A stretch of 64,000 nucleotides of DNA, taken from the NCBI GenBank assembly GCA_900321275.1, contig ONVI01000013.1, forward strand, positions 117 to 64,116, given 5' to 3'. Position numbers and translations under genes: made by a program. This DNA comes from an uncultured Eubacteriales bacterium (GTDB taxonomy: Bacteria > Bacillota > Clostridia > Oscillospirales > Oscillospiraceae). Numbering within the stretch: position 1 is the stretch's first letter; each line of letters starts with the position of its first letter. The notes beneath the pieces were generated by a model that saw nothing but the letters and a program-made list of their open reading frames with translations, made no database searches and was not told the origin of the DNA. Of this stretch, positions 4,905 through 64,000 are shown piece by piece.

Positions 4905-5975
4905 TTACGCCTCCGTCTGCGCCTGCAGGAGCGCGGCCTGGTCGGCGGTAACAAGGCAGTCGATCAGCTCGTCCAGGTTTCCGTTCATGATCGGCTGTAG
5001 ATTAAAGTTCTTGACGTCTCCGCTGAGGCGGTGGTCAGTCACGCGGTTCTGCGGGAAATTATAGGTGCGGATACGCTCGCTCCTGTCGCCGGAGCCGATC
5101 TGACTGCGGCGCTCGCTGGCGACGGCAGCGTTCTGCTTTGCCTGCTCGGCATCGGCGAGCTTGGCGCGCAGGATCTGCATGGCGCGATCCTTGTTTTTGT
5201 ACTGGCTGCGCTCATCCTGGCACTCAACCACCGTGCCGGTCGGCAGGTGCGTGATGCGGATGGCGCTCTCCGTCTTGTTGACGTGCTGCCCGCCCGCGCC
5301 GGAGGAGCGATACGTGTCGATCTTCAGATCGCCGGGGTCGAGGTGGAAGTCGATCTCCTCCACCTCCGGCAACACGGCGACGGTCGCGGCCGAGGTGTGG
5401 ATGCGTCCGCCGGATTCCGTGACCGGGACACGCTGGACACGGTGACCCCCCGCCTCAAATTTGAGCCGGGAATACGCCCCGGCGCCTTCCACGACAAAAC
5501 TGATCTCCTTGATGCCGCCGAGCTCGGTCTCGCTGATATTGGCGATCTCGATCCTCCAGCCCTTCGATTCCGCGTACATGGAGTACATGCGGAAGAGGTC
5601 GGAGGCAAAGAGCATCCCCTCTTCCCCGCCGACGCCGCCGCGGATCTCCATGATGACGTTTTTTCCGTCGTTGGGGTCCTTCGGGAGAAGCAATATCCTG
5701 ATCTCCTGCTCCAGCCTCTCCTTATCCGCCTTGGCCGACGCGTATTCCTCCTGCGCAAGCTCCTTCATCTCCGTATCGGACATGAGAAGCAGCGCCTCCT
5801 CCATGGCGGTGCAGGCTTTCCGATAGTCCCGATAGGCGGTAACCAGCGGCTCCAGTTCCCGCGACTCGCGATCCAGCCGTGCGTAAACGGCGGGGTCGGC
5901 ATAGGTGGACGGCTCCTCCATACGGGCGCAGATGAGCTCATATTTGTTTTCAAGCTGTTTCAGTTTGTCAAACAT
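4905..5975 (-). CDS. prfA: Peptide chain release factor 1
   Basis: 356 aa. GGQ motif 'SGAGGQHVNKTESAIRITHLPTG' and RF1-type 'PVT' tripeptide in 'RVQRVPVTES'. Confidence 0.97.
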   Translation of the reverse strand: MFDKLKQLENKYELICARMEEPSTYADPAVYARLDRESRELEPLVTAYRDYRKACTAMEEALLLMSDTEMKELAQEEYASAKADKERLEQEIRILLLPKDPNDGKNVIMEIRGGVGGEEGMLFASDLFRMYSMYAESKGWRIEIANISETELGGIKEISFVVEGAGAYSRLKFEAGGHRVQRVPVTESGGRIHTSAATVAVLPEVEEIDFHLDPGDLKIDTYRSSGAGGQHVNKTESAIRITHLPTGTVVECQDERSQYKNKDRAMQILRAKLADAEQAKQNAAVASERRSQIGSGDRSERIRTYNFPQNRVTDHRLSGDVKNFNLQPIMNGNLDELIDCLVTADQAALLQAQTEA

Positions 5976-6098: not shown

Positions 6099-6797
6099 TC
6101 AGCTTCCCAGATACGCCTTTCTGACCTCCTCGTTGACCAGCAGCTCCCTGCCGGTGCCGGTGAGGCCGATACGCCCGGTTTCGAGGACGTAGGCATAGTC
6201 CGCGATTTTGAGTGCCATGTTGGCGTTCTGCTCGATCAGGAGGACGCCCTGGGCGTTGATTTCCCGGATGATATCGAAGATGCCCTTTACCACCAGCGGG
6301 GCCAGACCCAGCGAGGGTTCATCCATCATGATGAGCTTCGGCTTGCTCATGAGCGCCCGCGCCACGGCCAGCATCTGCTGCTCACCGCCGGAGAGGGTGC
6401 CGGCCAGCTGCCAGTCGCGTTCCTTCAGGCGCGGGAACAGTTCATACACCCATTCGAGATCCTTCTCGATCTGCTCCTTGTCGTTTCGCAGATACGCGCC
6501 GATTTTCAGATTCTCGCGCACCGTGAGGTTTGTGAACACGCGCCGTCCCTCCGGGACCTGGGCGATGCCCTTTTCAAGGATCTTATAAATCGGCATGCCG
6601 AGCAGCTCTTCCCCATCATAGATGATGGAACCGCTGTCTGCCTTGACGAGGCCGGAGATGGTGCGCAGCGTGGTGGATTTGCCCGCCCCGTTTGCGCCGA
6701 TCAGCGTCACGATCTTGCCGTCGGGCACCTCGAGACTGATGCCTCTCAGGGCGCGGATGCCGCCATAGGACACATGCAGGTTTTCAATTTTCAGCAT
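6099..6797 (-). CDS. livF: Branched-chain amino acid ABC transporter ATP-binding protein
   Basis: 232 aa. Walker A 'GANGAGKST' and signature 'LSGGEQQML'. Overlaps livG by 14 nt. Confidence 0.93.
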   Translation of the reverse strand: MLKIENLHVSYGGIRALRGISLEVPDGKIVTLIGANGAGKSTTLRTISGLVKADSGSIIYDGEELLGMPIYKILEKGIAQVPEGRRVFTNLTVRENLKIGAYLRNDKEQIEKDLEWVYELFPRLKERDWQLAGTLSGGEQQMLAVARALMSKPKLIMMDEPSLGLAPLVVKGIFDIIREINAQGVLLIEQNANMALKIADYAYVLETGRIGLTGTGRELLVNEEVRKAYLGS

Positions 6798-49866: not shown

Positions 49867-50033
49867 TTTTTCTTTATATGGGTATCGGCTTGACACAGCA
49901 AGCTTCTCTGTATGACTGTAGGGGCGATTCACGAATCGCCCGGCGGCAGAGGCCACGTCCGGCGAATGCGCCTGGTTGTTTGCTGAATAAACCCGATACC
50001 CAGATTATCTTTTTTCTTTATTTATGCTTTCCG

Positions 50034-50062
50034 CCTGCCGTACGGCAGGTTTTCTTTTTTTG
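50034..50062 (+). terminator. Plus-strand terminator facing the 3' end of the convergent ABC ATPase gene
   Basis: Palindrome CCTGCCGTACGGCAGG followed by TTTTCTTTTTTT on the plus strand only. Confidence 0.65.
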
Positions 50063-50070
50063 GGCAGCGC

Positions 50071-50808
50071 TCACAGAACCTTGTTGAGGAACGTAACCAG
50101 TCGGGGACTTTCGGGGTGGTCGAAGAGCTCATGGCTGGGCTTGTCCTCTTCGATCCGACCGCCGTCCAGGAAGATGGTGCGGCTGCTGACTTCGCGGGCA
50201 AAGCGCATCTCATGGGTGACGACGATCATGGTCATCCCATCCTCGGCAAGCCGCTTCATAACGTCCAGCACCTCGCCGATCATTTCGGGGTCGAGTGCGC
50301 TGGTGGGCTCGTCAAACAGCATAACCTCCGGCTCCATCATCAATGCCCGCACAATGGCGATGCGCTGCTTCTGCCCGCCGGAGAGCTGATAGGGCCAGGC
50401 GTCCGCACGGTCGGCCAGACCGACTTCACGCAGCAGCTTCATGGCCATCTCCTCCGCCTGGGCCTGGGGCTTCTTCTTGATGCGCATGGGCGCGTCGATC
50501 AGATTGTGCAGGACATTCGCGTTGTTGAAAAGGTTGAACTGCTGGAACACCATGCCCATCTTCTGGCGGTGGAGGTTGATGTCCTGATTCTTGTCGCAGA
50601 TATCCACCCCGTCGAAAATCACCTGACCGGAGCTGGGTTCCTCCAGCAGGTTCAGGCAGCGCAGGAAGGTGCTTTTGCCGCCGCCGCTGGGGCCGATGAC
50701 GGAGACCACCTCATTGCGGCTGAAGCTGGTGGTGATGCCCTTGAGAACCTCCAGCTTGTGGAAGTTTTTATGCAGGTCGATTACTTTGAGAAATTCATCC
50801 TTTGCCAT
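50071..50808 (-). CDS. Polar amino acid ABC transporter ATP-binding protein (GlnQ-like)
   Basis: 'GPSGGGKST', 'LSGGQKQR' and '[10 protein letters not shown]'. Confidence 0.93.
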
Positions 50809-51490
50809 GGCTCATCCTCTTTTCCATCCATGCAATCAGCCGTCCGCCCAGGAAGGTCATGCAGAAATACAGTATGGCGGCGATGGCGAGACTTGCAAGC
50901 GTCCGGTAGGTGACGGCGATCACATCCTTGGTCCGGAACATCAGATCCGCAATGCCGATCACGGACACGATGGAGGATTCCTTGATCACAGTCACAAATT
51001 CATTGCCGAGGGCGGGGAGAATATTCCGGACCGCCTGCGGCAGTATGATGTACATCATCGCCTGGGTGTGGCTGTAGCCGATGCTGCGCGCCGCCTCCAT
51101 CTGGCCGCTGTCCACCGCCTGAATGCCGGAGCGGATCACCTCCGCCACATAGGCGCAGCTGTTAAGACTCATGGCGACGATGCCGGCGGTAAAGCGGCTG
51201 AAATCCGGAATAAAGGGAATGTCCGGGAAAGAAACGCCGATCATCGGCAGACCGTAAAAAATGAACATAAGCTGAACCATCAGCGGGGTGCCGCGGATGA
51301 ACTCGATATAAGCGGTGGCGATGAGGCGCAGCGGCATAAACTTGCTCATGCGCAGCATGGCAAGCAGCGTGCCCAGGATGGTGGCGATGAGCACCGAAAA
51401 GGCCGAGATGATCAGCGTGTTGCGGATACCCTCGGTGAAAAAGCTGTGATAGCGGGAGAAGAGCAGTGACATATCACTGAAAAAAGACAT
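50795..51490 (-). CDS. Polar amino acid ABC transporter permease (His/Glu/Gln/Arg family)
   Basis: 231 aa. '[10 protein letters not shown]' and an EAA-like loop '[22 protein letters not shown]'. Confidence 0.9.
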
Positions 51491-51579
51491 TGTTATGATT
51501 CCCTCCGAATAACAGAAAGCCAGCCAAGACGGGTTTTGCCGCCTTGGCTGTGCTTGGCGTCAGCATGAAGACAGAAGCA

Positions 51580-52404
51580 TTACAGGCCCATCTTGGAGGC
51601 CAGCGCGACGGCATCGTCGTAGGCCTTCTGATAGCTGCCGTCGGCCACCACAGCGGCGATGACCTCATTGACCGCAGCGATCAGATCCTCGTTGCCCTTG
51701 GAAATGACGACGGATTTGCCGAAGGAGGCTTCCTCGGCGGAGAACTCGAACTTGGACACGGCAAGGGCGCCGTTGCTGTTGGCGACGATGGAATCGCCCA
51801 CGGCAGAGTCAACCACCAGACCGGCAATGTTGCCGACGGTGACCTCAAGGGCCAGTTCGGGATACTTGTCCAGCTCGAAGAGCTTGCTGTCGGGCAGGGC
51901 CTTGGTGATGAGCTGGGACTGGATGGTGCCCTTCTGCGCGCCGACCTTCAGCCCGGCCAGAGATTCCTTGGTGGCGTATTTGTCAACGTTGCCCGCGGCA
52001 ACCACCAGATACTGCATGCTGGTCTCATAAAGGTCGGAGAAATCAATGACCTCCGCGCGCTCCGGCGTGTTCGTGAAAGCGGCAATGCCAAGATCGACCT
52101 GACCTGCCTGAACGGCGGGAATGATGCCGTCGAAGCTCATGTCGACGATCTCAAGCTTCACACCGAGGGCGTCGGCGATCTTCTGGGCGAGGAACATGTC
52201 GCAGCCGACAAAGTTTGCATCCAGATCCTTGAACTCATAGGGGGCGTACTGGGCCTCCGTGCCGACGACGAGCTTGCCCGAGGATTTGATCTTGGCCATG
52301 ACAGGGCCGTCGGCTTCCGCGGCGGATGCGGGGAAGGAAGCGAAGAGGGAAATCATCATCAAAAGGCAGAGAAGCAGTGCGCCGATTCTTTTTACGTTTT
52401 TCAT
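51580..52404 (-). CDS. Polar amino acid ABC transporter substrate-binding protein (family 3)
   Basis: Signal peptide. 'LVVGTEAQYAPYEF' and 'GFDVD-like IADALGVKLEIVDMSFDGIIPAVQAGQVD'. Confidence 0.9.
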   Translation of the reverse strand: MKNVKRIGALLLCLLMMISLFASFPASAAEADGPVMAKIKSSGKLVVGTEAQYAPYEFKDLDANFVGCDMFLAQKIADALGVKLEIVDMSFDGIIPAVQAGQVDLGIAAFTNTPERAEVIDFSDLYETSMQYLVVAAGNVDKYATKESLAGLKVGAQKGTIQSQLITKALPDSKLFELDKYPELALEVTVGNIAGLVVDSAVGDSIVANSNGALAVSKFEFSAEEASFGKSVVISKGNEDLIAAVNEVIAAVVADGSYQKAYDDAVALASKMGL

Positions 52405-52477
52405 AGGGAAACCTCACTTTCAAGCAATTATGCATATACACAGTGAATATTCATTTTATTCCCTTTGTACATACATA

Positions 52478-52505
52478 ATTATACAGGTTTTTTGGCATTT
52501 GTAAA
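52478..52505 (-). promoter_or_regulatory. Sigma-A-type promoter of the amino acid ABC operon
   Basis: Minus strand reads TTTACA-16 nt-TATAAT, with TG immediately upstream of the -10. Confidence 0.55.
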
Positions 52506-52722
52506 GTTTCAGATTTGACAAAAGACATCAGGGAGCAGGTTCGTTTGTTGTACAAAAGTACCGAACCATATATAGCTCCGCACCCGTCAACGGTTTTATA
52601 CTATCCGGATCGGAGGCGCGGAACCGGAAAACCGTCGGCACTGTCACTGCGGCCGTGCCGGCGCATTTCCTTGCCCGCACCCACAACCATGACGGCGCAA
52701 AACGCATGAAGTGCATGATGAT

Positions 52723-53271
52723 TTATATTTGGCTTTTTGCTGATTCCATGATGCCCTCAACATCCGCCCCGACAATGTCGAGTCCCGCAGCTGATATCAG
52801 TCTGAATTCGGGAATGCCGTAAAAACCCTGTGCCAGCGCTTTGACATATCCGGCCCCGTATTCCTCCGGAAAGCAGTTCCCGCCGACAGTCGTGATATAG
52901 GTAACGCATTTCGCTCTGCACAAGCCGGTCGGTATCCCTTCCGGCGTGTAATAGAACGTGATTCCGCGAACATTGATCTGCTCAAAATACTGCTTCAGCG
53001 CAGCGGGGAAAGACAGATCCCAAAACGGTGCGGCAATCACGATATCATCCGCATCGGCAAATTGTCTTGCAAGATCAAACATCGGATCGTTGAAATCCCT
53101 CTGCGCAATCAGCCGATCCCGCCTGTTGAGAAAGCTTTCATCGACGGTCGGGAAGTCGATTGCATTCAGATTTACTTCCTCGTAAGCTTCCTTTTGTTTT
53201 GACAGGAAATGATCCGCCAGCTCTTTTGTTCTGGATCCTTTCCTTACACACGCATTGATAAAAAGATTCAT
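52723..53271 (-). CDS. Flavodoxin-fold NAD(P)H-dependent oxidoreductase (azoreductase/ACP-phosphodiesterase-like)
   Basis: Start at MNLFINACVRKGSRTKEL (AAGGAGG RBS), plus 'DIVIAAPFWDLSFPAALKQYFE'. Confidence 0.8.
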   Translation of the reverse strand: MNLFINACVRKGSRTKELADHFLSKQKEAYEEVNLNAIDFPTVDESFLNRRDRLIAQRDFNDPMFDLARQFADADDIVIAAPFWDLSFPAALKQYFEQINVRGITFYYTPEGIPTGLCRAKCVTYITTVGGNCFPEEYGAGYVKALAQGFYGIPEFRLISAAGLDIVGADVEGIMESAKSQI

Positions 53272-53511
53272 CCCCGTCCTCCTTCTGTTGATAATACGCA
53301 AACGCCCCTGCGGATGAACGATTCCGCGGCGGCGTTTGAATGTTAAGGCAATACCGCACAATTCGGCAAGAGCAGATTTCGAGAAAAATTGAGTTCTGAT
53401 GAAGGCAGTTTTTCGCAGGAATACTCTGTGTATTTCAAGACGCAATTTTTCCGAAAGATGCCGAAGACGGATTATGCGGTGTTGCCTTAAGGCAGCGGAA
53501 AGCGCTCAGTA

Positions 53512-54975
53512 TCATTTGCCGGCGTAAAACTCAGTCCTTGTCGGGTTGGCCTGAATCAGAACCGAGCTCTGCTGGAAGGTCTCGAGCATTTCATCCGCCG
53601 CGGCATGAACGGCTTCCTCGGTCGTATCGCTCAGATAAATCACCAGGGTGTATTCCTGATAAAGCTTGTCGTCTCCGACCCAGCCGCCAAGCGCGTCCTG
53701 TATGGTATAGCCGCCGAAATGGCGAATCAGAATGTCCTTCAGCTTCTCCTGCGCTTCGGCCTGCGTGAACACCGGTCTGTTCGTGTCCTTGTCGTTCGTG
53801 CCGAGATACAGCACATACTGAACACCCTCGCTCGTCTCCGGCTCAGCCGCAGATTCAGCCGGGGCCGGAGCCGGAGCCGCCTCCCGGTTCTCCGCCAGAT
53901 CCTCAGCCCAGTGGAATACGCCTGTCTTGATCACATTGTCGCCGTAGATCGTGCGGAAATCGTCCCGCATGGAAATCACATGGAAACCGTTCTCTGCCCA
54001 CTTCTCCTTCAGCGGCGCAGTCTTTTCGGGGTTGCCGTAGTCGCGCACATCGTCGTCCGCGACCAGCATGAAGGCCGCGCTGCGATAGGGATTGTTGTTG
54101 ATCGTGTACATGTGCATGCTCACGTCGCCGCTGCTGTTGCCGAAGGAGAGCACCGGCTTGTGACCGATCTCCTGGACAATCTGCCTGACCTTGTTCATTT
54201 TCAGGTTTTTGATGAGGAGTCTGTCCGTTCGGACGATGTCGTCCCCTGCTTTGAAGACGTATTGCAGCCCGTCCTCACCGTTCTGGCCGGTCGCCTCGAG
54301 CTCCACATCCATGCCGATGATATTCTCATAGGGGATGTCCAGGACACCTTCGGTAAAGGTACGGCAGATGAAGCGATCGGTACCCGAGCAGATATAGACC
54401 TTGAAATCGTTGTCCTGCAGGTACTCTACGACCTCGATCATGGGCAGGTAGAAGGACAGCGCCCAGGTCATGCCCTCAAAGCCGTCCGCGCTGCGGAGCA
54501 GACACCTGTTCACAAAATCGGCAAACTCCTTGAGCGTCATACCGGCATAGGCGCCGGCCGCGTGCCGGGCGTGCAGCAGATCCATGCCGTCGGGATAGGA
54601 CTTGTCGATCGCATGATCGCGCAGCATGCGGCCGAACTCCAGCATCTCGGCGTCCGGCGTATAGGTGGGATCCTTCAGGATGCGCCAGGCCAGCAGATAG
54701 TATTCCAGATAGGTCGGGCACAGCTCGGCACAGAGCGTCCCGTCCATATCGAATACGGCGATGCGGTCGGCAGGCGGAATATAGTCCGGTGATTTTTTGT
54801 CCGTCACAGCCTCTACATACTCAATCAGCGCCCCCAGCGCAGGCGCGCCGTCGTTCCAGTCTGCGAAGATTTCCTCATACTCGTACGTTTCCTCAGCCGA
54901 GGCAAATGCGCCGCCGAAGCAGCACAGGCCGAGCATGATTGCCAGGACAAGGCAGCTCGTGATAAGTCTTTTCAT
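53512..54975 (-). CDS. Secreted two-domain protein: HAD-superfamily phosphatase + C-terminal DUF3574-like domain
   Basis: Signal peptide ending AFA|SAEE. HAD motif I 'FDMDGTL' and motif IV 'GNSSGDVSM'. Ala/Pro/Glu linker. C-terminal 'YVLYLGTN...FGGYTIQDALGGW...TFQQSSVLIQ'. Start set to the second ATG after AAGGAG. Confidence 0.75.
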   Translation of the reverse strand: MKRLITSCLVLAIMLGLCCFGGAFASAEETYEYEEIFADWNDGAPALGALIEYVEAVTDKKSPDYIPPADRIAVFDMDGTLCAELCPTYLEYYLLAWRILKDPTYTPDAEMLEFGRMLRDHAIDKSYPDGMDLLHARHAAGAYAGMTLKEFADFVNRCLLRSADGFEGMTWALSFYLPMIEVVEYLQDNDFKVYICSGTDRFICRTFTEGVLDIPYENIIGMDVELEATGQNGEDGLQYVFKAGDDIVRTDRLLIKNLKMNKVRQIVQEIGHKPVLSFGNSSGDVSMHMYTINNNPYRSAAFMLVADDDVRDYGNPEKTAPLKEKWAENGFHVISMRDDFRTIYGDNVIKTGVFHWAEDLAENREAAPAPAPAESAAEPETSEGVQYVLYLGTNDKDTNRPVFTQAEAQEKLKDILIRHFGGYTIQDALGGWVGDDKLYQEYTLVIYLSDTTEEAVHAAADEMLETFQQSSVLIQANPTRTEFYAGK

Positions 54976-55052
54976 GATTCTACTCCTTTTGAAGCGTCTT
55001 TTCATAGGGTCAGCCGCGCGCGGGCGCAGGATATCGCTGTGCGCCGCTGTGT

Positions 55053-55985
55053 TTATGCGTCATCACACAGGATCTTGAAGGCGGAGGTATAGGCGTAGAT
55101 GAGCGGATCGTCGTAACGGAAGAAAATCATGCCGTCCGCGGGACTCTGCATGGTTTCGAGAATTTCTCCGGTGCAGGGATCAATGATTTCCGCCAGCGCC
55201 TGTCCGGCGGTGACACGGACGTTTTGGGGAACCAGATTGCGATACAGGCCGGATTGACCGGTACGGACATTCAGCAGCTCGTCATATCGGAAAATACGCC
55301 CGTGCGCGGCGGGAGCCGGGCTTCCCTTCAAAATACCGCTGCAGATCATAAAGCGCTCCACCGCGTCGACGGCCAGCTCCGCCTCCAACGCGCTGATCTC
55401 TGCGGTGGTGCCGGAGTAGATGCTGTAGGCGTCGGTCTCCCAAATCTGCCAGTTGTAATTCAGGGTAGCGGTATCGTAGGGCCGCGGCTCGCGCACCACG
55501 ATGTACGGCAGGCCGAAGCCGCGGGCCTTCTCCGGATCTTCGTAGCCCGTGTGTATCATCTGGACATAGGGCTGGAACTCTCCAGGCATGTAGAAGGAGG
55601 TAAACTGAATGCCGATGGGATATTTGTTGACGATCTCAAAGATTGCGCCCGCGATCCGCTGGGTGGTCTCGCCCAGCGCGTAGCCGGGAAACATCCGGTT
55701 GATGTCGGTGTTGTCGATGCACCAGAAGCGCTTGCCGATGTTCATGGACGCGGGGTTGACGGTAGGGATCACCATGACCTGCCTGTTCTCCGCGAAACGC
55801 CCCTGAGCCTCCAGCTTTTTCAGGCGCTGCAAAACACGGGAGCAGGTGTATAGCTGCTGGTACTCGTTGCCCCGGGAGCTGCCCACGATGCACAGCGCCT
55901 TTTCGCCCTCGCCGAAGGTAAAGGCGCGGATGCGGAAGTCGTCCCGGTAGATATTGGATATCCGGAAGATGATGCTCTCTTTCAT
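55053..55985 (-). CDS. Degenerate M14 (succinylglutamate desuccinylase/aspartoacylase-type) paralog lacking metal and catalytic residues
   Basis: 310 aa and colinear with the upstream paralog. It reads 'GSSRGNEYQ' where 'GIHGDELEG' is expected, 'IQFTSF' for 'FDIHAS' and 'SIYSG' for 'VVEMG'. It keeps 'DINRMFPG'. Confidence 0.75.
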   Translation of the reverse strand: MKESIIFRISNIYRDDFRIRAFTFGEGEKALCIVGSSRGNEYQQLYTCSRVLQRLKKLEAQGRFAENRQVMVIPTVNPASMNIGKRFWCIDNTDINRMFPGYALGETTQRIAGAIFEIVNKYPIGIQFTSFYMPGEFQPYVQMIHTGYEDPEKARGFGLPYIVVREPRPYDTATLNYNWQIWETDAYSIYSGTTAEISALEAELAVDAVERFMICSGILKGSPAPAAHGRIFRYDELLNVRTGQSGLYRNLVPQNVRVTAGQALAEIIDPCTGEILETMQSPADGMIFFRYDDPLIYAYTSAFKILCDDA

Positions 55986-56914
55986 CGCGCGCCGCCTCCT
56001 ACCAGGATTCGCCCCATGAGCGAGCCCTCATCCACCAGCGGGTAATCCCGGATTGTGAACAGGAGCCCGCTCTTTTCGGCGTTTACGTATTCCAGCACCT
56101 GTCCCTCAAAGGGATCGAACACATAGCCGACGGTCTCCCCTTTTTTGACCCGCGAGCCGTGGCATTTTGTTTTCATGAACATCCCCGAGCAGCGCGCGTT
56201 CAGGAAGATGACCTCATCCTGGGTGTCCGCGACGATGGGCGTGCTCACGGGCAGGACTTCCCCATCCCACATGCCAAGACTTTTCATGGTGTTCAAAATC
56301 CCGGTGGTGAGCTGCTGGCCGTAGTCCCCGGTCAGGCGCATTCCGACGCCCATCTCCACCACAAGGCAGGGCGTCCCGATGGCGTTTAACGAGTAGGCCA
56401 GCGTGGATTCCAGCACTGTGCTGGCGCCGTGCACCCATATCAGGTCTACGTTGGCCTGACGCGCCAGCGGCAGCAGCGTGTCCTTGTGGAGCTCGTTGAT
56501 ACGCACCTGCGGGATCTCCGTCAGGAAAATATTGCTGGCGTGGATATCAAATACCAGGTCGGAGCCGGCCAGATCGGACACAAGGGCGCTGGCGACAAAC
56601 TCGGTCATCACGCCGGTATCGGAGCCCGGGAAGGTGCGGTTCATATCCAGGTCAAAGCCGGGGATGCCCCTCTGGATGGAGCCGATGCCCAGTGGGTTCA
56701 CTGCCGGATAGATCTCCACGCTGCCGTGCAGCAGTTCGGGATTCCGGTTCAGGATCCTGTTGAGCAGAAAGCAGACATACTGGCCCTCCAGTTCGTCTCC
56801 GTGAATGCCGGTCACCACGCAGATCCGCTTCCCCTCTCCGTTTCGGATAACATTTTTTCGGATGCGGAAGGTCTCCTCCACCGGGAGGGGGATGCTGACG
56901 ATATCTTTTAGCAT
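55982..56914 (-). CDS. M14-family zinc deacylase/carboxypeptidase (succinylglutamate desuccinylase/aspartoacylase type), catalytically intact
   Basis: 'VVTGIHGDELEG' (HxxE), 'DMNRTFPG', 'FDIHAS' (third ligand) and 'VVEMG' (general base). Confidence 0.8.
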   Translation of the reverse strand: MLKDIVSIPLPVEETFRIRKNVIRNGEGKRICVVTGIHGDELEGQYVCFLLNRILNRNPELLHGSVEIYPAVNPLGIGSIQRGIPGFDLDMNRTFPGSDTGVMTEFVASALVSDLAGSDLVFDIHASNIFLTEIPQVRINELHKDTLLPLARQANVDLIWVHGASTVLESTLAYSLNAIGTPCLVVEMGVGMRLTGDYGQQLTTGILNTMKSLGMWDGEVLPVSTPIVADTQDEVIFLNARCSGMFMKTKCHGSRVKKGETVGYVFDPFEGQVLEYVNAEKSGLLFTIRDYPLVDEGSLMGRILVGGGAR

Positions 56915-57714
56915 AGGCGCCTCTCTTCGCTCTCCGTGACGATGACGGAGATGTCCGTTTTCTGTTTTGCGCCGCCTCGGAAAATGCCGCGGTTAATGGC
57001 GCAGTCCTGCGCGTCCCGCCCGTGGGAGAGCTTGATGTGCTGGTCAGACACGACAAGGCAGTTGGCGGGATCGTACCCCGTCCAGAGCCCCTCGTGCAGC
57101 ACCTCCACCCAAGCGTGGCTCTCCCCTTCGCCCAGCAGCATACCGGCCGCATAGCGGGCGGGAATGCTGTGTACACGCAGCGCCGCAAGCATGATGTGCG
57201 CGTAATCCTGGCACACGCCGCAGCCCATGGAAAACGCCTCGGCGGCCGTGGTATGAACCGTTGTCGCGCCGGGCTGATAGGACAGCGCGTCGTGCACCCT
57301 GCGCATGACGGTCTCCATCTCCGCGGGCGCGCCGGTGCGGACGGAAAGGCTTTCGGCGAAATCCCGGAGCGCGCCGTCCGCCTTCGTCAGCGGTGTGGCA
57401 AAGGAAAAAACCCGTTCCCTCTCCGGATTTTCCGTCGGGGTACCGAAAGCCGGCCCGACGTCCGTCAGCCCGCACACGTTGGCCTCGAAGCTGCTCTGCA
57501 GCCCGCGGCAGCAGCCGTACAGCAGGGCATTGCCCCACTGATCCCGGCCGCAGCTCAAGTCGTCCACGGGAGACAGAAAATGCCGCAGCTCCGTGATATG
57601 CTGCCTTGCGTCCGATGAGGGGACGCAGCGCAGCGTAAAGTGATGGAAGCTGACGGGGGCGTCCATCGTGATCTTCAAATGGTAATGGAAAGACAGCCTT
57701 TTCACGCTCAGCAC
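56908..57714 (-). CDS. Transglutaminase-like cysteine protease (Bact_transglu_N + TGase core)
   Basis: 'GCGVCQDYAHIMLAALRVHSIPARYAAGM' (Cys) and 'ESHAWVEV...YDP' (His/Asp). Confidence 0.85.
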   Translation of the reverse strand: MLSVKRLSFHYHLKITMDAPVSFHHFTLRCVPSSDARQHITELRHFLSPVDDLSCGRDQWGNALLYGCCRGLQSSFEANVCGLTDVGPAFGTPTENPERERVFSFATPLTKADGALRDFAESLSVRTGAPAEMETVMRRVHDALSYQPGATTVHTTAAEAFSMGCGVCQDYAHIMLAALRVHSIPARYAAGMLLGEGESHAWVEVLHEGLWTGYDPANCLVVSDQHIKLSHGRDAQDCAINRGIFRGGAKQKTDISVIVTESEERRLC

Positions 57715-58376
57715 TCCACCAGCGCATCCACGATGCGGATGATCTCCAGGTAATCAAGCTCCGGCGCGTCCGCCAGCTCCTGCAGCCTTTGAAGCCCCGC
57801 CTCGGAATAGATCAGCTCCGTGCGGCGGATGCGCCAGCTCAGGCGGCGGATTTCCCGCCGGATCACCGCCCGGTCCCTCCGCAGACGGGCATAGAGGTCG
57901 ATCCGCTCCACGCGTTTGCCGATCTTGATGATGTTGCGGGTGTTTTCATCGTCGATCTGGTCGTCCGCGCAGCCCCAGAAGGCCAGTATCGCGTCCGTGA
58001 TCTTCTGAAAATGCAGCAGCGGCGCTTCGCTGCGCATGGCGGACTTCATCTCATAAATCGCCATCTGGATGAAGGAGAGGGTTTCGCTGCCGATCTCCTC
58101 GCGCAGCTCGATCGCGTTGTCGTAGGCCCGGTACAGGTTGGAGATGATGGAATTGGGGTCGTCCAGGCCGAAGGGGTACCGGGCGATGAAATCGTCCTTG
58201 TCCCGATAGATGTCCGGGATCTCCAGCGACTCGCAGAAGACCCTGTGGTCGTCCTCGCGCTGCTCAATAAGGGTGTCGAAGGAAGAAGAAAACAGCTTGA
58301 GCGTGGTATAGACCCGCTCGGAATACCGGCCCAGCCAGAACAGCCGGTCGGTATTCATTACAGACTTAATACCCAT
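57708..58376 (-). CDS. Alpha-E domain protein (COG2307-type), short form
   Basis: 'DRLFWLGRYSERVYTTLKL' is the signature start of alpha-E domains. At 222 aa it is shorter than the usual roughly 300 aa. Confidence 0.75.
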   Translation of the reverse strand: MGIKSVMNTDRLFWLGRYSERVYTTLKLFSSSFDTLIEQREDDHRVFCESLEIPDIYRDKDDFIARYPFGLDDPNSIISNLYRAYDNAIELREEIGSETLSFIQMAIYEMKSAMRSEAPLLHFQKITDAILAFWGCADDQIDDENTRNIIKIGKRVERIDLYARLRRDRAVIRREIRRLSWRIRRTELIYSEAGLQRLQELADAPELDYLEIIRIVDALVEC

Positions 58377-59680
58377 GTGTCTTTAAAGCCTCCCCCCTGA
58401 GAAGAGTTGACGATGAAGGAATCCGGATTTCTCGAAAAACGGGTAAGCCCGCTTTTCCAGACCACCGGCTCCTCGCTGCTCAGGACAAAAGCGCGCAGAT
58501 CGGCCTTGCGCTCCACCTGTCCGCCCTCGTCCAGGATCGGAATGTCGCAGAAGTCGATGACCTCCTGCGCGATGAAGCGGCGCGGCTGTGCCGCAATCAT
58601 GGCGCGAAGGCGTTCCTTCTCCCCTGCGCTGAGCTTGCTGCCGAACACGACGCCGTAGCCGCCCGCCTCCGCAACGTCCTTGATGACCAGCGTATCGAAG
58701 TGCTCCATCACATACTTCCGATCCGCCTCATAGAAAGGCAGATAGGTGGGCGCATTGCGCAGGATCGGCTCTTCGCGCAGGTAATATTCGATCATCTTCG
58801 GGACGAAATAGTAAATCCCCTTGTCATCGGCAATGCCGTTGCCGGGGCTGTTCAGCAGGGCGACGTTGCCCTTTCGATAGACGTCGAAGATGTGCGGAAT
58901 GCCGATCAGAGATTCCGGCCTGAAGGTCATGGGATCCATGTACTCGTCGGAAATCCGGCGATACACGGCGCCGACGCGTTCTTTCCTCCCGGCGTAGCCG
59001 GTAAAGAAGAGCGTATCGCCCTCAACCTCCAGATCACTGCAGGTGACCAGCGGGACGCCCATCTGCTCGGCGAGATACGAGTGTTCAAAATAGGCCGCGT
59101 TGTAGCGCCCCGGCGTGAGCACGACACTGATGCCGCCCGTGTTTACAAAGTCCATGACGTGCCGCAGAAGCAGCGGATAATTCCGGTTGTCCTCGATGGG
59201 CGTGTCATGGAAGGTGCGCGGGCTGCAGCGGCGCTCCAGCCCGCGGACGATCGTGGGATAGGAGGCGCCCGAGGGGACGCGCAGATTGTCCTCCAAAATA
59301 TACCAGACCCCGTCCTTTCCGAGTACGAGGTCGATGCCGGACACATGGGAAAAGATTTCCTTCGGCGGGACAATCCCCTCGCAGGGGGCCAGATAGCCGC
59401 TGGCGGCATAGACAAAATCCGCGGGCACGACGCCGTCCGAAATGATTTGCTTTTTGCCGTAGACGTCCTTCAAAAACAGGTTCAGAGCGGTGACGCGCTG
59501 TTTAAGGCCCCGTTCCAGATAGGAAAACTCATCCTTCCCGATGATGCGGGGGATCGGATCAAAGGGGAAAAGCTGCTCCTTGAAGACGCCGTTTTTGTAG
59601 ATGCCGAATTTTACGCCGTAGCGGGCCAACAGACCGTTGATATCATCCGTGCTCTTCAGCAGCTTGTCAAGATTTACCAA
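58358..59680 (-). CDS. Circularly permuted type-2 ATP-grasp protein (COG2308-type amidoligase)
   Basis: 'FPFDPIPRII...E...LERGLKQRVTALNLFLKDVY', 'DLVLGKDGVWYILEDNLRVPSGASY' and 'LNSPGNGIADDK'. Start proposed at the TTG at 59680, downstream of a TTGCTT-17-TATAAT promoter. The track ORF extends to 59911 but runs into a repeat element. Confidence 0.8.
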   Translation of the reverse strand: MVNLDKLLKSTDDINGLLARYGVKFGIYKNGVFKEQLFPFDPIPRIIGKDEFSYLERGLKQRVTALNLFLKDVYGKKQIISDGVVPADFVYAASGYLAPCEGIVPPKEIFSHVSGIDLVLGKDGVWYILEDNLRVPSGASYPTIVRGLERRCSPRTFHDTPIEDNRNYPLLLRHVMDFVNTGGISVVLTPGRYNAAYFEHSYLAEQMGVPLVTCSDLEVEGDTLFFTGYAGRKERVGAVYRRISDEYMDPMTFRPESLIGIPHIFDVYRKGNVALLNSPGNGIADDKGIYYFVPKMIEYYLREEPILRNAPTYLPFYEADRKYVMEHFDTLVIKDVAEAGGYGVVFGSKLSAGEKERLRAMIAAQPRRFIAQEVIDFCDIPILDEGGQVERKADLRAFVLSSEEPVVWKSGLTRFSRNPDSFIVNSSQGGGFKDTWVLSL

Positions 59681-59881
59681 TTTGAACCACTTCTTCCTTC
59701 TGTTGTCGGAGCTGCGCTCTTCATGTCTGGTATAGCTATTATAGCCGCAGTTTCCGGATAAAGCAAGAACAGAACCGTAATTGAGTGCGCCATATCCGAT
59801 GCCGCTCACCCTTTTGAGACTCGTATGGGCGTATTGGTTATTGATTTTAAGTGTGGGCATAAGTGTTAAAAAGTCGGACGC

Positions 59882-60025
59882 GTTGCAAAATGCATGTTGA
59901 AGCAAAACCATAGGGGTCGATCCCCGGATCGACCCGTTGCATTACGCACATTGTCGTAAAACAGCGGGCCGATGAGGGCATCGGCCCCTGTGATTTCGCA
60001 TGGTTATGCATTTTGAGACAGCCTG
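59882..60025. repeat. About 145-bp composite hairpin repeat, copy 1
   Basis: About 93% identical to 63791-63934 by my manual alignment. Contains GGGGTCGATCCCC.GATCGACCC and GGGCCGATGAGGGCATCGGCCC hairpins plus the ATGCATTTTGAGACAGC arm. Confidence 0.8.
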
Positions 60026-60038
60026 ATGTATTCTGCCG

Positions 60039-62372
60039 TTACGCGGCGATCGGCAAACTGACGTCCGCGCCGGTATACGTCTCAAGCAGCGCATCATAGG
60101 CGTCGATGGCGTTCCCGAGGCAGTCAAGCACGTCGTCCAGGCGATAATACCCGTCTGCGTTCCGCTCCAGGCCGGGGAGATCCAGGTCAAAGGACACGGG
60201 GGGATTGTCCAGCGTAAGCGGGATCATGCCGCGCAGCTGTTCGGTGCTCTGGTAGATCAGCCGCACTTTGGCATAAGCCTGGCCGTCCTCCGACGTCCAT
60301 GTTTCAAATACAAGCTTCACACCGATGGGCGTTCTGGGCTCCACCGTGTCGGGCAGCTCATACTCTCTCACGCCGAGCGCGGACAAGACGCTCGCGAGGT
60401 TGGAGTCATGACCGCACAGGAAGCTGAACTTTCGGCCTTCCGCCGTCAGCTCAGAACGGATCTCCTGAAGCAGCGGATGCGCCACGTTCACGGCAATCAA
60501 CGGAGTTTCAAACAGGATCCCGGTATAGGTGTCCACGATGCTGTGGATCTTCAGCCAGTCGTCCCGGGTCAGATCGTGGCCGAAGGCGGCCGCCTTGTCG
60601 TCGGCGGTCTCATAGTATTGAAAGGTGAGAGCGTCCGCCACCGACGTCGCGGTCTTGATGGGACCGGATATGCCCGGTTCACTTTCGGGTCCAAGGATGA
60701 GAGTCGTCCCGTCTTCCAGCAGGTCGCCGAACTTGCCGGACTTGTATGCCTCGCTCTCATCCATGTCGGTCACATCCATCAGCAGCTCAATGGCGTCCAG
60801 CAGCCCGGCGTGTATCCCCTCCAGCCCGGCCTCGCCGCCCAATTCGGCGATCTGGGCGGAGACATCCTCCGCGTACGCATCATTGAAGAAGTTCAGCATG
60901 GGATGGAAGGTCGGATCCATCGTATCGTATTCCGCGCGGCACTCGACCGGCACCGACGCCACGGGCAGGAGCCCCGCGGAGAAGTAACGGGCCGTCGCCT
61001 GCGTGCGCTGCTTGGCGTTGGCATAGAAGCGCACCGCGCCTTCTTCGGGCCGGTAGTTCTCCGGGAAGAGTCCCTCGTCCTCCAGCCACAGGCGGAAATA
61101 CTGTCCCATCTGGGTTTCCAGTATCGCGCCGCGCAGGGAGAGCTCACTGGGATTGCTCGTCCACGCAAACCATGTGTGCGGCGTGATGTCACCCAGCATC
61201 GAACCGCTGCCCGACAGCGGGGAGCGGATATTGTGGCGGCTCAGCACAACCACCTTGTCCAGCGTGTAGGCAGACTCCGCACCGTTCTCTTCCGCCGCGG
61301 CTTCCGGTTCTGTCTGCGCCGCGTCTGCCATCTTCACGCCGTCGCCGTAGATGGTATCGAACTCATCCCGCTCGGAGACCGTATAAAAACCGTTGGCGTC
61401 GCATTTCTGCTGAAAGCTTGCGGCGGTCTCCGGAGAACCGTAGTCCCGTTCGGTATCATCGCAGAGCAGCATATACGCCCTGCCGCCGTACTTTTCGTTT
61501 TGCAGGGTATAGGTCGCCATGGAGAAATCGCCCGTGGAATTGCCGAAGGCCAGCACGGGCATCCTGCCGATTTCCTGCTGGATCATCGTGGCTTTGTTGG
61601 TCTTCTGATTCTTGAGGAAGAGCTCACCGGCGATCACCAGCTCATCCTCCGGCTTCAGCTCATAGAACATGCTGTTCTTGTCCGCGTCGCCGGAGGCTAC
61701 ATACAGAAGATCCGTACCGATCACATGATCCCGGGGGATATACTCGTCCAGCACGCCCTCGGTCAGCACGCGGACAGCGTCCCGATAAGTCGCGCTGACA
61801 ATATAAATCGTATAGTCATTGTCATATAAGTACTTTACCAGCGAGACCATCGGCCGGAAAAACGCCTCGCCATAGGTCATGCCCTCAAACCCCCAGACCG
61901 GCAATTGCTTGAAGCGGCGGACGACATCGTCGTATTCGTCCGGGGTCAGGCCCTCATAGAGCTTCGGGCCGAGCTCGCGTTCCTTCGCGTCAAAGTCCTC
62001 GACAGGAACACCCCGGAGCACCTTATCCTCCCACGCCTGCGCGAATGCTTTCAGTTCTTCGGGTGCTTCATAATTCTCGTCATAGAGCGCCCGCTGAATA
62101 TACAGCCAGTCGTTGAAGTAAGTCGGAAAGCGCTCGCCGTACAATGTGCCGTCGTTGTCGAAAACGGCAATTCTGTCTTCCTTCGGAATATAGCCATCCG
62201 AAGTTTCGTCCACAGATTTTTCCACAAAGTCTATGATGGATTTCATCGCCGGGGAATCCTTCGACCAGTGCTCAAGGACTGTCGCTTCCTCTGCTGCGGC
62301 AAAGGCATTGCCGAAGCAGCACAGGCCCGGCACCATGGCAAGGATCAGGCAGATCGCAGCAAGTTTTTTCAT
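60039..62372 (-). CDS. Secreted two-domain phosphatase: HAD-superfamily domain + histidine acid phosphatase (Agp/AppA branch-2) domain
   Basis: Signal peptide ending AFA|AAEE. HAD 'FDNDGTL' and 'GNSTGDFSM'. C-terminal half has 'VVLSRHNIRSPL' (RHxxR) and 'CGHDSNLASVL' (HD). Start set to the second ATG after AAGGAG. Confidence 0.8.
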   Translation of the reverse strand: MKKLAAICLILAMVPGLCCFGNAFAAAEEATVLEHWSKDSPAMKSIIDFVEKSVDETSDGYIPKEDRIAVFDNDGTLYGERFPTYFNDWLYIQRALYDENYEAPEELKAFAQAWEDKVLRGVPVEDFDAKERELGPKLYEGLTPDEYDDVVRRFKQLPVWGFEGMTYGEAFFRPMVSLVKYLYDNDYTIYIVSATYRDAVRVLTEGVLDEYIPRDHVIGTDLLYVASGDADKNSMFYELKPEDELVIAGELFLKNQKTNKATMIQQEIGRMPVLAFGNSTGDFSMATYTLQNEKYGGRAYMLLCDDTERDYGSPETAASFQQKCDANGFYTVSERDEFDTIYGDGVKMADAAQTEPEAAAEENGAESAYTLDKVVVLSRHNIRSPLSGSGSMLGDITPHTWFAWTSNPSELSLRGAILETQMGQYFRLWLEDEGLFPENYRPEEGAVRFYANAKQRTQATARYFSAGLLPVASVPVECRAEYDTMDPTFHPMLNFFNDAYAEDVSAQIAELGGEAGLEGIHAGLLDAIELLMDVTDMDESEAYKSGKFGDLLEDGTTLILGPESEPGISGPIKTATSVADALTFQYYETADDKAAAFGHDLTRDDWLKIHSIVDTYTGILFETPLIAVNVAHPLLQEIRSELTAEGRKFSFLCGHDSNLASVLSALGVREYELPDTVEPRTPIGVKLVFETWTSEDGQAYAKVRLIYQSTEQLRGMIPLTLDNPPVSFDLDLPGLERNADGYYRLDDVLDCLGNAIDAYDALLETYTGADVSLPIAA

Positions 62373-62561
62373 CGTCAAGCTCCTTTTCATTTTTTGATGT
62401 TATAATTATTTTACGGTTCTGCATCGTCAGTGTCAAGGGCTTTTTCCGGAGAATCAAGCCTGAAGTCTTTGCCGTTTTTTCCGACTTGTCTGCTTCAATC
62501 ATGAGCAGAGAATACCCCCGGCAGGATCGAAGACACAGCTGTATGATGCCCAAATATCCTG

Positions 62562-62590
62562 TTGCCTTCAGGCGGGGGTTCTGCTATAAT
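62562..62590 (+). promoter_or_regulatory. Sigma-A-type promoter upstream of the DUF3089 gene
   Basis: TTGCCT-17 nt-TATAAT. Implies a leader of about 150 nt. Confidence 0.5.
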
Positions 62591-62749
62591 TTGTCTGTCA
62601 TGATATGCTCATGCGCAAGGGTAAAAATCCGCCGTCAGGATGTGCGCGGGGATTTTTCAGCGTTTCCCTAAAGAAAACCGAAATCTTTCCCCTTGTTTCC
62701 CTGCTGCACAGGGACGGGGATGAGGATAAATTGAAAGGAGCTTCATACC

Positions 62750-63709
62750 ATGAAAGAAAGCAAGGCCCCCGACTACGCCAAAAAGGAATGCTGGCAGCAT
62801 TTTCCGGAGATCACCAAGGACGTTGACACGTTCTACATTTTCGCCACGGATTACATCCTGGCCAGCTTTGAGGAGGGCGCTCCCGATTACGCACCGCTCG
62901 ACAACGAGGAGTTTCTCTTCGGCACGAAGGTGGAATACAGGGACCACGCATCCGCATACGAGGATGCCACCAATGTGTTTGCTCCGTATTACCGCCAGTC
63001 CGGCCTGCGGTACGCGGGGGAAGTCATCAAGGAGACCGGGAACTTTGACAATGCGCTTTTGAGCCTGCCCTATGAGGACATCACAGCCGCGCTCGACTAC
63101 TACTTTGAAAACTGCAACGGCGGCCGTCCGTTCATTCTGGCGGGCCACAGCCAGGGCTCTGCCATGGTTCTGCTGCTGCTGAGGACGTATTTCAAGGACC
63201 ATCCCGAGTACTATGCGCGCATGGTCGCGGCCTACACCATCGGCTATTCCGTCACGAATGACTATCTTGAAGCCAACCCGCACCTGAAGTTCACCACCGG
63301 CGAGACCGATACGGGCGTCATCATCGCCTGGAACACGGAGGGGCCCGAGAACGTGAAGACGAATGCCCGCAATATCGTTGTGCTGCCCGGGACAAGGAGC
63401 ATCAACCCCCTCAACTGGAAGCTGGACGAGACCTACGCCCCGGCGAGCATGAACCTGGGTTCCATTATAGAAGATCCGAAAACCGGCGAGACCTCGATCG
63501 GGGATGTCGGCGCGGACGCGCAGATCAACCTCGCCCGCGGCGTGGTGGTGACGAACGCCAAAACCGCCCCGATGCCCGAGGAAGCGGCCAGAATCGGCGC
63601 CTCCTTCTTCGGGCCGGACGGCCGCCATGCCAACGACTACACGTATTACTACAACAACATCAAGGCCAACGTGGCCAAGCGCGTCGCGGCTTATATGGCA
63701 AACCGATAA
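62750..63709 (+). CDS. DUF3089-family alpha/beta hydrolase (lipase/esterase-like)
   Basis: 'VFAPYYRQ' and 'ILAGHSQGS' nucleophile elbow. AAAGGAG RBS. Confidence 0.75.
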   Translation: MKESKAPDYAKKECWQHFPEITKDVDTFYIFATDYILASFEEGAPDYAPLDNEEFLFGTKVEYRDHASAYEDATNVFAPYYRQSGLRYAGEVIKETGNFDNALLSLPYEDITAALDYYFENCNGGRPFILAGHSQGSAMVLLLLRTYFKDHPEYYARMVAAYTIGYSVTNDYLEANPHLKFTTGETDTGVIIAWNTEGPENVKTNARNIVVLPGTRSINPLNWKLDETYAPASMNLGSIIEDPKTGETSIGDVGADAQINLARGVVVTNAKTAPMPEEAARIGASFFGPDGRHANDYTYYYNNIKANVAKRVAAYMANR

Positions 63710-63790
63710 TACCAGACAGTTTCAATCGGGCAGGAGGGGTGACGAATCCCCTCCTGCCCGATTTTAATGCCCGGCACACATAGAGGGGCT

Positions 63791-63934
63791 GTCTCAAAAT
63801 GCATGATAAACCAAAACCGTAGGGGTCGATCCCCAGATCGACCCGTTGCATCACGCACATTGTCGTAAAACAGCGGGCCGATGAGGGCATCGGCCCCTAC
63901 GATTTCGCATGGTTATGCATTTTGAGACAGCCTG
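63791..63934. repeat. About 145-bp composite hairpin repeat, copy 2 (complete outer hairpin arms)
   Basis: GCTGTCTCAAAATGCATG-[106 bp]-GTTATGCATTTTGAGACAGC. The inner part is shared with 59882-60025. Confidence 0.8.
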
Positions 63935-64000
63935 CAGACTGTAGACAAAGTCCGTTTATGTCATTGCGAACATTCTGACGCGCGGGAAGCGTGCGACAGT

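Follow-up and report, generated by a model that had tools for sequence, protein, structure and literature searches.

In a 64,000-nucleotide (nt) stretch of contig ONVI01000013.1 from an uncultured Eubacteriales bacterium (hereafter the window), five genes on the minus strand between positions 55053 and 59680 encode, in this order in the open reading frame listing, a circularly permuted ATP-grasp ligase, an Alpha-E protein, a transglutaminase-like thiol peptidase, an intact AstE/AspA-type M14 zinc deacylase/carboxypeptidase (M14a), and a catalytically dead paralog of the latter (M14p). This cassette is a variant of a known, functionally uncharacterized ATP-grasp/Alpha-E/transglutaminase-like system. 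The explanation we favor, with slightly better than even confidence, is that the five genes constitute a conserved, self-contained cytoplasmic ligase/hydrolase operon wherein the M14 pair stands in the place of Anbu, a proteasome-like Ntn-hydrolase, and that their products would carry out a build, cut, and finish (or writer/eraser) cycle.

The classical form of this system (COG2308-COG2307-COG1305), first recognized in 2008-2009, is widely distributed among bacteria, Mycobacterium tuberculosis and Pseudomonas among them, and is still without a substrate. The triad was described together with Anbu by Valas and Bourne (PMC3235984), and the classical operon order is ATP-grasp, Alpha-E, transglutaminase, and Anbu (PMC6376114, PMC5666114). 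It has been interpreted as a system that ligates peptides, its transglutaminase-like peptidase taking off the tags that the ATP-grasp enzyme adds (PMC3495828, citing Iyer et al. 2009). Structural studies of Anbu saw no peptidase activity, and the ligase activity they report is limited to ATP hydrolysis (PMC5666114, PMC6376114), the Yersinia ATP-grasp homolog releasing phosphate from ATP (PMC6376114). The Rv2411c and Rv2567 proteins have been expressed and were inactive in the reaction tested (2026 preprint, bioRxiv 10.64898/2026.04.15.718621). An initial annotation of the locus had described the triad as uncharacterized and predicted to ligate peptides by means of an ATP-grasp enzyme, alongside a transglutaminase-like peptidase. 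This agrees with published descriptions (PMC3495828, PMC5666114, PMC3235984), and the later reports (PMC6376114, bioRxiv 10.64898/2026.04.15.718621) likewise assign no function. Full-text literature searches returned neither a function for the triad nor a link between the triad and M14 proteins; the figures of Iyer et al. 2009, which may show an M14 neighbor, lay outside their scope.

The cassette has the same three families in the same order as the classical system, and the ER motif of Alpha-E and the Cys-His-Asp triad of the peptidase are intact here too. It differs in that its Alpha-E protein is only ~220 amino acids long, matching the first 170 of 294 profile positions, and in that the ATP-grasp N terminus is shorter. 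Moreover, Anbu, a frequent but not obligatory fourth gene, is lacking, and its position is occupied by the active/dead M14 pair. No Anbu-type gene was found in the window or in ~150 related loci. The hosts are also distinct, as the cassette resides in Clostridia.

The five genes and their products

Families were assigned by Pfam, structures by AlphaFold2 and Foldseek, RNAs by Rfam, defense genes by PADLOC, and named enzymes by NCBIfam, whereas residue conservation was counted among homologs extracted from the ~150 related loci. Pfam places every open reading frame in the family that had been proposed for it at first reading. NCBIfam has no model for the ATP-grasp, Alpha-E, or peptidase families, and the PADLOC anti-phage models gave zero matches for the five proteins. 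None of the five translations has a visible N-terminal signal sequence, and the system is thus taken to be cytoplasmic. Within the window, each of the five genes was found only once.

The ATP-grasp protein (positions 58358-59680, 440 amino acids) matches PF14403 (CP_ATPgrasp_2; E value 4.8e-132, positions 1-373 of 374) and PF04174 (8.7e-121), both over their full length, as well as the structure 3N6X (1e-106), relative to which its N terminus is ~32 residues shorter. The sequence GAAGGAAG precedes its TTG start at 59680, and this start gives an N-terminal length equal to that of its homologs. Of the five proteins it is the best conserved, with 111 of 440 positions invariant over 131 homologs, including the C-terminal motif SSQGGGFKDTW, and with a ratio of nonsynonymous to synonymous substitution rates (dN/dS) of 0.07.

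The Alpha-E protein (57708-58376, 222 amino acids) matches PF04168 (1.3e-20) only across profile positions 7-169 of 294. It retains the ER motif, with E20 present in 94 of 95 homologs and R21 in all 95, and it begins with a conserved N terminus, MGI(K/I)S, at the ATG at 58376. The AlphaFold2 model is all-alpha, with a mean predicted local distance difference test score (pLDDT) of 87.9. A sequence search of the PDB returned no relative, and a Foldseek search with this confident model gave nothing better than an E value of 0.15.

The junction between these two genes (58358-58393) is dual-coding. The Alpha-E ATG (58376-58374) is formed where the ATP-grasp gene encodes Thr-Trp in its invariant C-terminal motif, and a Shine-Dalgarno-like GGAGG (58393-58389) is formed by the QGGG codons of the same motif. 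Because both signals sit inside an invariant protein motif, the overlap is exactly 19 nt, as observed in 48 of 53 related loci and again in a Sulfuricurvum-type locus described below (L099). This arrangement argues for coupled translation of ATP-grasp and Alpha-E, which occur elsewhere as natural fusion proteins, both in Bifidobacterium and in larger systems of this kind.

The transglutaminase-like peptidase (56908-57714, 268 amino acids if read from GTG 57714) matches PF01841 (Transglut_core; 1.1e-15), the bacterial N-terminal domain PF08379 (Bact_transglu_N), and the structure 3ISR (4e-12). Its Cys-His-Asp triad (C168, H200, and D215) is invariant in 113 of 113 homologs. Overlaps of 19, 7, 7, and 4 nt between successive genes had been noted at the outset, and these are correct by open reading frame coordinates. 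For the second of them, the more likely start of the peptidase is GTG 57705, which would yield a 265-amino-acid protein and a 2-nt gap after the Alpha-E stop codon rather than a 7-nt overlap. This start is favored because a GGAG lies 10 nt upstream of GTG 57705 but only 1 nt from GTG 57714. One independent metagenome gene call (n = 1) also gives a peptidase of 265 amino acids.

M14a (55982-56914, 310 amino acids) matches PF24827 (AstE_AspA_cat; 2.2e-21), the structure 3CDX (1e-16), and the deacetylase DoeB (6TWM; 1e-9). It retains H38, E41, H125, E187, and the N92-R93 pair, wherein H38, E41, H125, E187, and R93 are kept in 128 to 130 of 130 homologs. These residues are equivalent to H50, E53, H179, E251, and N112-R113 of CphZ, whose zinc triad, Asn-Arg pair, and general base are essential (PMC9974463). 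By sequence, the match between M14a and CphZ is marginal (E value 0.0033 over 55 residues), and 3CDX and DoeB are nearer.

M14p (55053-55985, 310 amino acids) also matches PF24827 (8e-9) and is related to M14a over its whole length (23% identity, 4e-17). At the catalytic sites of M14a it has R38, F128, and Y190, and therefore has lost two zinc ligands and the general base. An active/inactive pair, as the initial annotation had described it, is thus what the residues reveal. The catalytic set is absent from 133 of 133 homologs, which carry R, S, or N in place of the first His, F or L in place of the second, and Y, V, or F at the Glu position. At the same time, M14p has invariant motifs of its own (YRDDFR, GETTQRIA, and LNYNWQxWE). 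Its AlphaFold2 model is confident (pLDDT 88.7, predicted template-modeling score 0.88) and is matched by Foldseek to DoeB 6TWM (3.8e-19) and to 3CDX (template-modeling score 0.72-0.74), and its dN/dS of 0.12-0.23 falls within its neighbors' range of 0.06-0.35. Given this fold, the purifying selection, and the protein's own invariant motifs, M14p is an old, maintained pseudoenzyme and not a decaying gene.

The AstE/AspA family has members acting on substrates that include succinyl-glutamate and acetyl-aspartate, and to our knowledge its characterized enzymes all split one amide bond beside a free alpha-carboxylate in a small substrate, each detaching one amino acid from an N-acyl or isopeptide-linked molecule. 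Among the relatives of M14a, DoeB releases diaminobutyrate from acetyl-diaminobutyrate, and CphZ cleaves beta-Asp-Arg/Lys (CphZ: PMC9974463). M14a scores far below the NCBIfam cut-off of every named enzyme (62 bits versus 402.7 for the DoeB model TIGR02994), and its specificity is for this reason not assignable. A preference for acidic residues is not supported. An early suggestion that the operon builds and trims a Glu/Asp-containing peptide finds no backing; of the nearest characterized relatives, DoeB yields diaminobutyrate and CphZ splits beta-Asp-Arg.

Conservation across Clostridia, Sulfuricurvum, and Bifidobacterium

The conservation of the cassette was sampled from both of its ends. 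From the M14p side, M14p-specific patterns gave at least 576 confirmed stretches in records holding one genome per species; neighborhoods were taken for the best 80 of these, and gene order was counted in the 55 loci with at least 4.3 kilobases (kb) upstream. All five genes are present in the order of the window in 50 of the 55. Two more loci hold all five genes, one (L012, 8260-13053) as the cyclic permutation peptidase, M14a, M14p, ligase, and Alpha-E, and the other (L029) with Alpha-E split. The last three (L024, L027, and L079) are visibly decayed, with fragments of Alpha-E or the peptidase remaining. The best 80 of the at least 576 stretches come nearly all from Lachnospiraceae, Oscillospiraceae, Ruminococcaceae, and other Clostridia, and include the isolates Pseudobutyrivibrio, Eubacterium plexicaudatum ASF492, and bacterium 1xD42-87. 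Overall, hundreds of Clostridia from the gut and rumen carry the cassette.

From the ATP-grasp side, an exhaustive search that did not rely on profiles delineated a compact clade with at least 55% identity to the protein of the window, all other sequences having at most 46%. Among metagenome loci with enough room (n = 58; 43 Clostridia-type and 15 Sulfuricurvum-type), the M14 pair is present in 52. The Clostridia-type loci comprise 37 with the peptidase, M14a, and M14p, five with the triad only, and one with only the ligase and Alpha-E, and the pair accompanies the ligase in 15 of 15 Sulfuricurvum-type loci. Since the order is conserved from both sampling sides, the adjacency of the triad and the M14 genes is not due to chance. 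Hundreds of genomes from two phyla thus keep the M14 genes with the triad, a linkage that the initial annotation had left to be checked.

Between M14a and M14p the spacing is -4 or -8 nt in 46 of 74 loci, whereas at the Alpha-E/peptidase and peptidase/M14a junctions it ranges from a slight overlap to a few hundred nucleotides. Co-expression, which had been called obligatory on the basis of the overlaps, is therefore a reasonable inference for the ATP-grasp/Alpha-E and M14a/M14p pairs but is less firm for the whole set.

Sulfuricurvum (Campylobacterota, L091-L108) carries a compact ATP-grasp protein with 55-57% identity, a short Alpha-E, an active M14, and a dead M14. In several of these loci the cassette lies directly downstream of a second, larger ligase system. 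The metagenome contig of locus L099 (1059-11945), for example, holds two ligase systems in tandem on one strand. The first encodes a transglutaminase-DUF2126 amidoligase of 1137 amino acids, a fused ATP-grasp/full-length Alpha-E protein of 824, and a transglutaminase of 297; the second encodes the compact ATP-grasp protein, short Alpha-E, M14a, and M14p. The M14 pair is a frequent accessory that travels with the ligase and Alpha-E across phyla, and it was already an active/dead pair before this spread.

The closest ATP-grasp relatives outside the hosts of this clade are found in Bifidobacterium (L171-L174, many species), with 60% identity, an Alpha-E of the same short type, and the peptidase as in the window. 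There, the ligase and short Alpha-E form one protein of ~727 amino acids that is followed by the peptidase, and no M14 gene is present within 8 kb. Compactness had initially been listed as a distinguishing trait of the operon, and indeed Alpha-E is short and the ATP-grasp N terminus is truncated relative to 3N6X. However, because the M14-less Bifidobacterium version has the short Alpha-E too, both are features of the clade and not of the link to M14.

Beyond the five genes, no sixth gene is conserved, the best candidates being transporter genes in at most 17 of 78 loci. Likewise, among small open reading frames (20-95 amino acids) lying up to 600 nt from either end, none is shared by more than seven of the ~150 loci, and the few that are shared represent antisense shadows.

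Several loci depart from the standard arrangement. Lacrimispora indolis SR3 (L079, 8544-10936) and L027 (8698-10930) retain the M14 genes and fragments of the rest, and the remnant in L024 (6379-7606) has a C-terminal fragment of Alpha-E directly before M14p. The latter resembles P0095, a 419-amino-acid metagenome protein (18 member sequences) that we considered as a Rosetta-stone fusion of Alpha-E and M14p. It joins Alpha-E at residue ~155 to M14p at residue ~53 at a short shared sequence (GKRVxR), and for this reason it was rejected as a deletion product or assembly chimera. Both forms have the appearance of deletions that span the peptidase and M14a genes. In two other loci (L017, 8577-9071, and L018, 6830-7355), an insertion of ~500 nt with a common antisense open reading frame, possibly a repeat or a piece of mobile DNA, separates the peptidase from M14a.

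Boundaries, leader elements, and neighboring genes

The cassette in the window is flanked on the same strand by genes for two secreted HAD-type proteins, one downstream (53512-55005) with a C-terminal DUF3574/S-AdoMet-lyase-like domain and one upstream (60039-62390) with a C-terminal histidine-phosphatase domain (His_Phos_2), as assigned by Pfam. They are true paralogs, as proposed at first reading, with 43% identity over a shared N-terminal part of 355 amino acids and differing C termini. Nevertheless, HAD genes were not found beside the cassette in related loci outside the species of the window, and the flanks are incidental to it. Two terminator-like hairpins identified by pattern scan after the upstream HAD/His_Phos_2 gene (59987-59966 and 59935-59914, minus strand) mark the upstream boundary of the operon. 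The same scan predicted no terminator between M14p and the downstream HAD gene. A weak promoter candidate, TTGCTT-17-TATAAT (59766-59738, minus strand), lies ~60 nt 5′ of the ATP-grasp start and was noted on reading the sequence, below the threshold of the scan. No known Rfam RNA element is present in 50000-64000; a match to mir-3913 at 63798-63921 (minus strand), with 32.7 bits against a gathering score of 100, was taken as chance.

We also surveyed 99 distinct upstream regions of related loci for motifs. Approximately one-third have a consensus-like promoter, TTGACA-17-TAnAAT, followed 10-20 nt later by a 12-base-pair terminator-like hairpin. This leader hairpin, AAAGGCGYYCUGC-loop-GCAGRRCGCCUUUUU (GGCGUUCUGC), lies 20-130 nt 5′ of the ATP-grasp start and is absent from the window. 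Examples are present in L043 (~6190-6240), L058 (~6130-6180), and L072 (6171-6222). Its 5′ arm is nearly invariant, and its 3′ arm has A/G variation opposite U. No Rfam family matched the hairpin, and no riboswitch or known RNA was found upstream of three related loci. The hairpin is a candidate attenuator. In two loci (L037, ~3700-4464, and L038, ~4766-5545), the hairpin GGCGTTCTGCAGTGGCAGGGCGCTTTTT also precedes a gene slightly downstream of the cassette for a Peptidase_C26 protein (gamma-glutamyl hydrolase/PuuD-like; Pfam 2e-63), and the hairpin common to both may reflect shared regulation.

Operator motifs were scarce among the 99 regions, with one TnrA/GlnR match and no sigma-54 or ArgR-like match. 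CodY-like matches with at most three mismatches occur in 22 of the 99, a count that, for AT-rich leaders and without a background to set it against, is uninformative.

Genes for polar amino-acid ATP-binding cassette (ABC) transporters adjoin the cassette on the same strand in ~11-12 loci (about one-fifth), upstream in L042, L044, L054, L077, L085, and L086 and downstream in L052, L064, L047, and L022, among others. In the window, such a transporter is encoded at 50071-52404, 2.6 kb downstream of the cassette. Many of these loci also have a gene of the Cytidylate_kin2 family, which adjoins the start of the ATP-grasp gene. Seven of the transporter binding proteins are nearest to PEB1 (Asp/Glu) and the others are generic, all scoring below curated cut-offs. 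In one subclade (L126, L136, L141, and L148), a FUSC_2/ArAE_1 (aromatic-acid-exporter-like) membrane protein of 182-212 amino acids is encoded directly upstream of the ligase, with which its gene overlaps by 4 nt in L141, and in L052 (15087-16436) a FUSC_2/ArAE_1 domain is fused to a Cof-type HAD hydrolase. A full-length Rfam match to 5_ureB_sRNA in Eubacterium plexicaudatum ASF492 (L072, 18361-18658, minus strand; 96 bits, E value 7e-24) is unrelated to the cassette.

A proposed ligation and hydrolysis cycle and its alternatives

In the cycle that we favor, the ATP-grasp enzyme would act with Alpha-E to join an ATP-activated carboxylate to an amino group, so that one or more amino acids would be added to an acceptor not encoded in the cassette. 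The Cys-His-Asp peptidase would cut the resulting amide or isopeptide link, and M14a, probably hetero-oligomeric with the noncatalytic M14p, would release the amino acid at the end of the fragment, to which it is joined by an N-acyl or isopeptide link. In this scheme, the M14 pair would fill the role presumed for Anbu in the classical operon.

A three-step cycle is favored because AstE/AspA-type hydrolysis is the reverse of ATP-grasp ligation and because there are precedents in the RimK/RimB and cyanophycin systems. In the first, the ATP-grasp enzyme RimK adds glutamates to the C terminus of a protein, and a co-encoded peptidase removes them (PMC11957051). RimK is, however, a nonpermuted ATP-grasp enzyme, the eraser is a retropepsin-like aspartic peptidase, and no Alpha-E, transglutaminase-like, or M14 protein takes part. 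In the cyanophycin pathway (CphA/CphB/CphZ), an ATP-grasp-domain synthetase makes a polymer, an endopeptidase cuts it, and a dimeric AstE/AspA-type M14 enzyme splits the isopeptide-linked dipeptide (PMC9974463). Dimer formation by members of the M14a family thus has a precedent, CphZ being a homodimer (PMC9974463). The cassette has no homolog of CphA or CphB and, as stated above, only a marginal match between M14a and CphZ. A third parallel comes from eukaryotes. Tubulin is modified by TTLL glutamylases and CCP deglutamylases, which pair an ATP-grasp writer with an eraser that is an M14-clan carboxypeptidase. These enzymes belong to other subfamilies of both folds and have a known target. The analogy to TTL has been drawn for the ATP-grasp system before (PMC3495828).

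Several points weigh against this cycle. Every member of the system still lacks an identified substrate, product, and acceptor. The M14 pair is absent from six of the 58 close relatives and from the Bifidobacterium version, and thus it is not essential to the core reaction. Furthermore, Sulfuricurvum lacks the peptidase between Alpha-E and M14a. Finally, transcription as one unit and complexes between M14a and M14p and between ATP-grasp and Alpha-E are features that we infer.

A more specific form of the favored cycle is one we put forward tentatively, as it appears rather doubtful in all its parts taken together. Here, a novel intracellular product would be made and recycled by most Lachnospiraceae and Oscillospiraceae of the gut and rumen. 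It could be a short tag of amino acids attached to the carboxylates of proteins, or else an oligomer with isopeptide links that serves as a nitrogen or stress buffer. The dead M14 protein would serve as a reader, offering the modified substrate to active M14a, and expression would be gated by the leader hairpin in many species.

The main rival, which is weakly supported and which we consider unlikely, is that the cassette serves the salvage or catabolism of an imported amino-acid conjugate (N-acyl, gamma-, or beta-linked) to amino acids or nitrogen. The hydrolases would then be the principal actors, and the ATP-grasp/Alpha-E pair would serve in activation or re-ligation. This explanation accommodates the polar amino-acid transporters that adjoin the cassette or, in the window, lie nearby, the PEB1-type binding proteins among them, and the leader hairpin that is common to the cassette and the Peptidase_C26 gene in two loci. 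It also fits the fact that the characterized AstE/AspA enzymes (AstE, DoeB, and CphZ) are all catabolic. However, the transporters are present in only about one-fifth of the loci and are of mixed types, and no protein of the cassette is as conserved as the ligase, with its 111 invariant positions, which would be unusual for a purely degradative route. The classical operon of Pseudomonas putida is induced 16- to 22-fold with nitrate versus ammonium (PMC8050072), and a predicted RpoN site precedes the Bradyrhizobium homolog (PMC13207237). These data, although in keeping with salvage, concern Proteobacteria with Anbu and not the M14 variant.

It is very improbable that the cassette makes a ribosomal or nonribosomal peptide natural product, with the ATP-grasp enzyme as a macrocyclase or ligase and the peptidases processing a precursor. 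ATP-grasp enzymes of other families do make lactam- or lactone-cyclized ribosomal peptides, and the exporter-like FUSC_2/ArAE_1 protein directly upstream of the ligase in one subclade could be read in this way. Yet the ligase belongs to the circularly permuted family and is not of the microviridin type, and neither a conserved small open reading frame near either end nor a conserved sixth gene was found. Moreover, there are entire Clostridia families in which almost every member has the cassette, whereas biosynthetic clusters are patchy in their distribution.

That the M14 pair is a mere neighbor, functionally unrelated to the triad, is scarcely credible: although the pair is missing from some close relatives, and the three remnant loci keep M14 genes without the ligase, the same order recurs in 50 of 55 and 37 of 43 loci, the genes are closely spaced or overlapping, the pair stays with ATP-grasp and Alpha-E in Sulfuricurvum even though the peptidase gene has moved, and the remnants are decayed operons with Alpha-E fragments.

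The link to M14 overturns nothing, but no clearer clue to the chemistry has yet been available for this system, which has been unassigned for more than 15 years. Because an AstE/AspA-type pair has been inherited together with the ligase in both phyla, the search narrows to products with a terminal amino acid that bears a free alpha-carboxylate. Three natural versions are available for comparison, namely with the pair (Clostridia), without the pair (Bifidobacterium), and without the intervening peptidase (Sulfuricurvum), and M14p offers a clear example for how pseudoenzymes work. As the hosts are dominant gut and rumen bacteria, the modification or metabolite produced by this operon would be widespread and of general interest.

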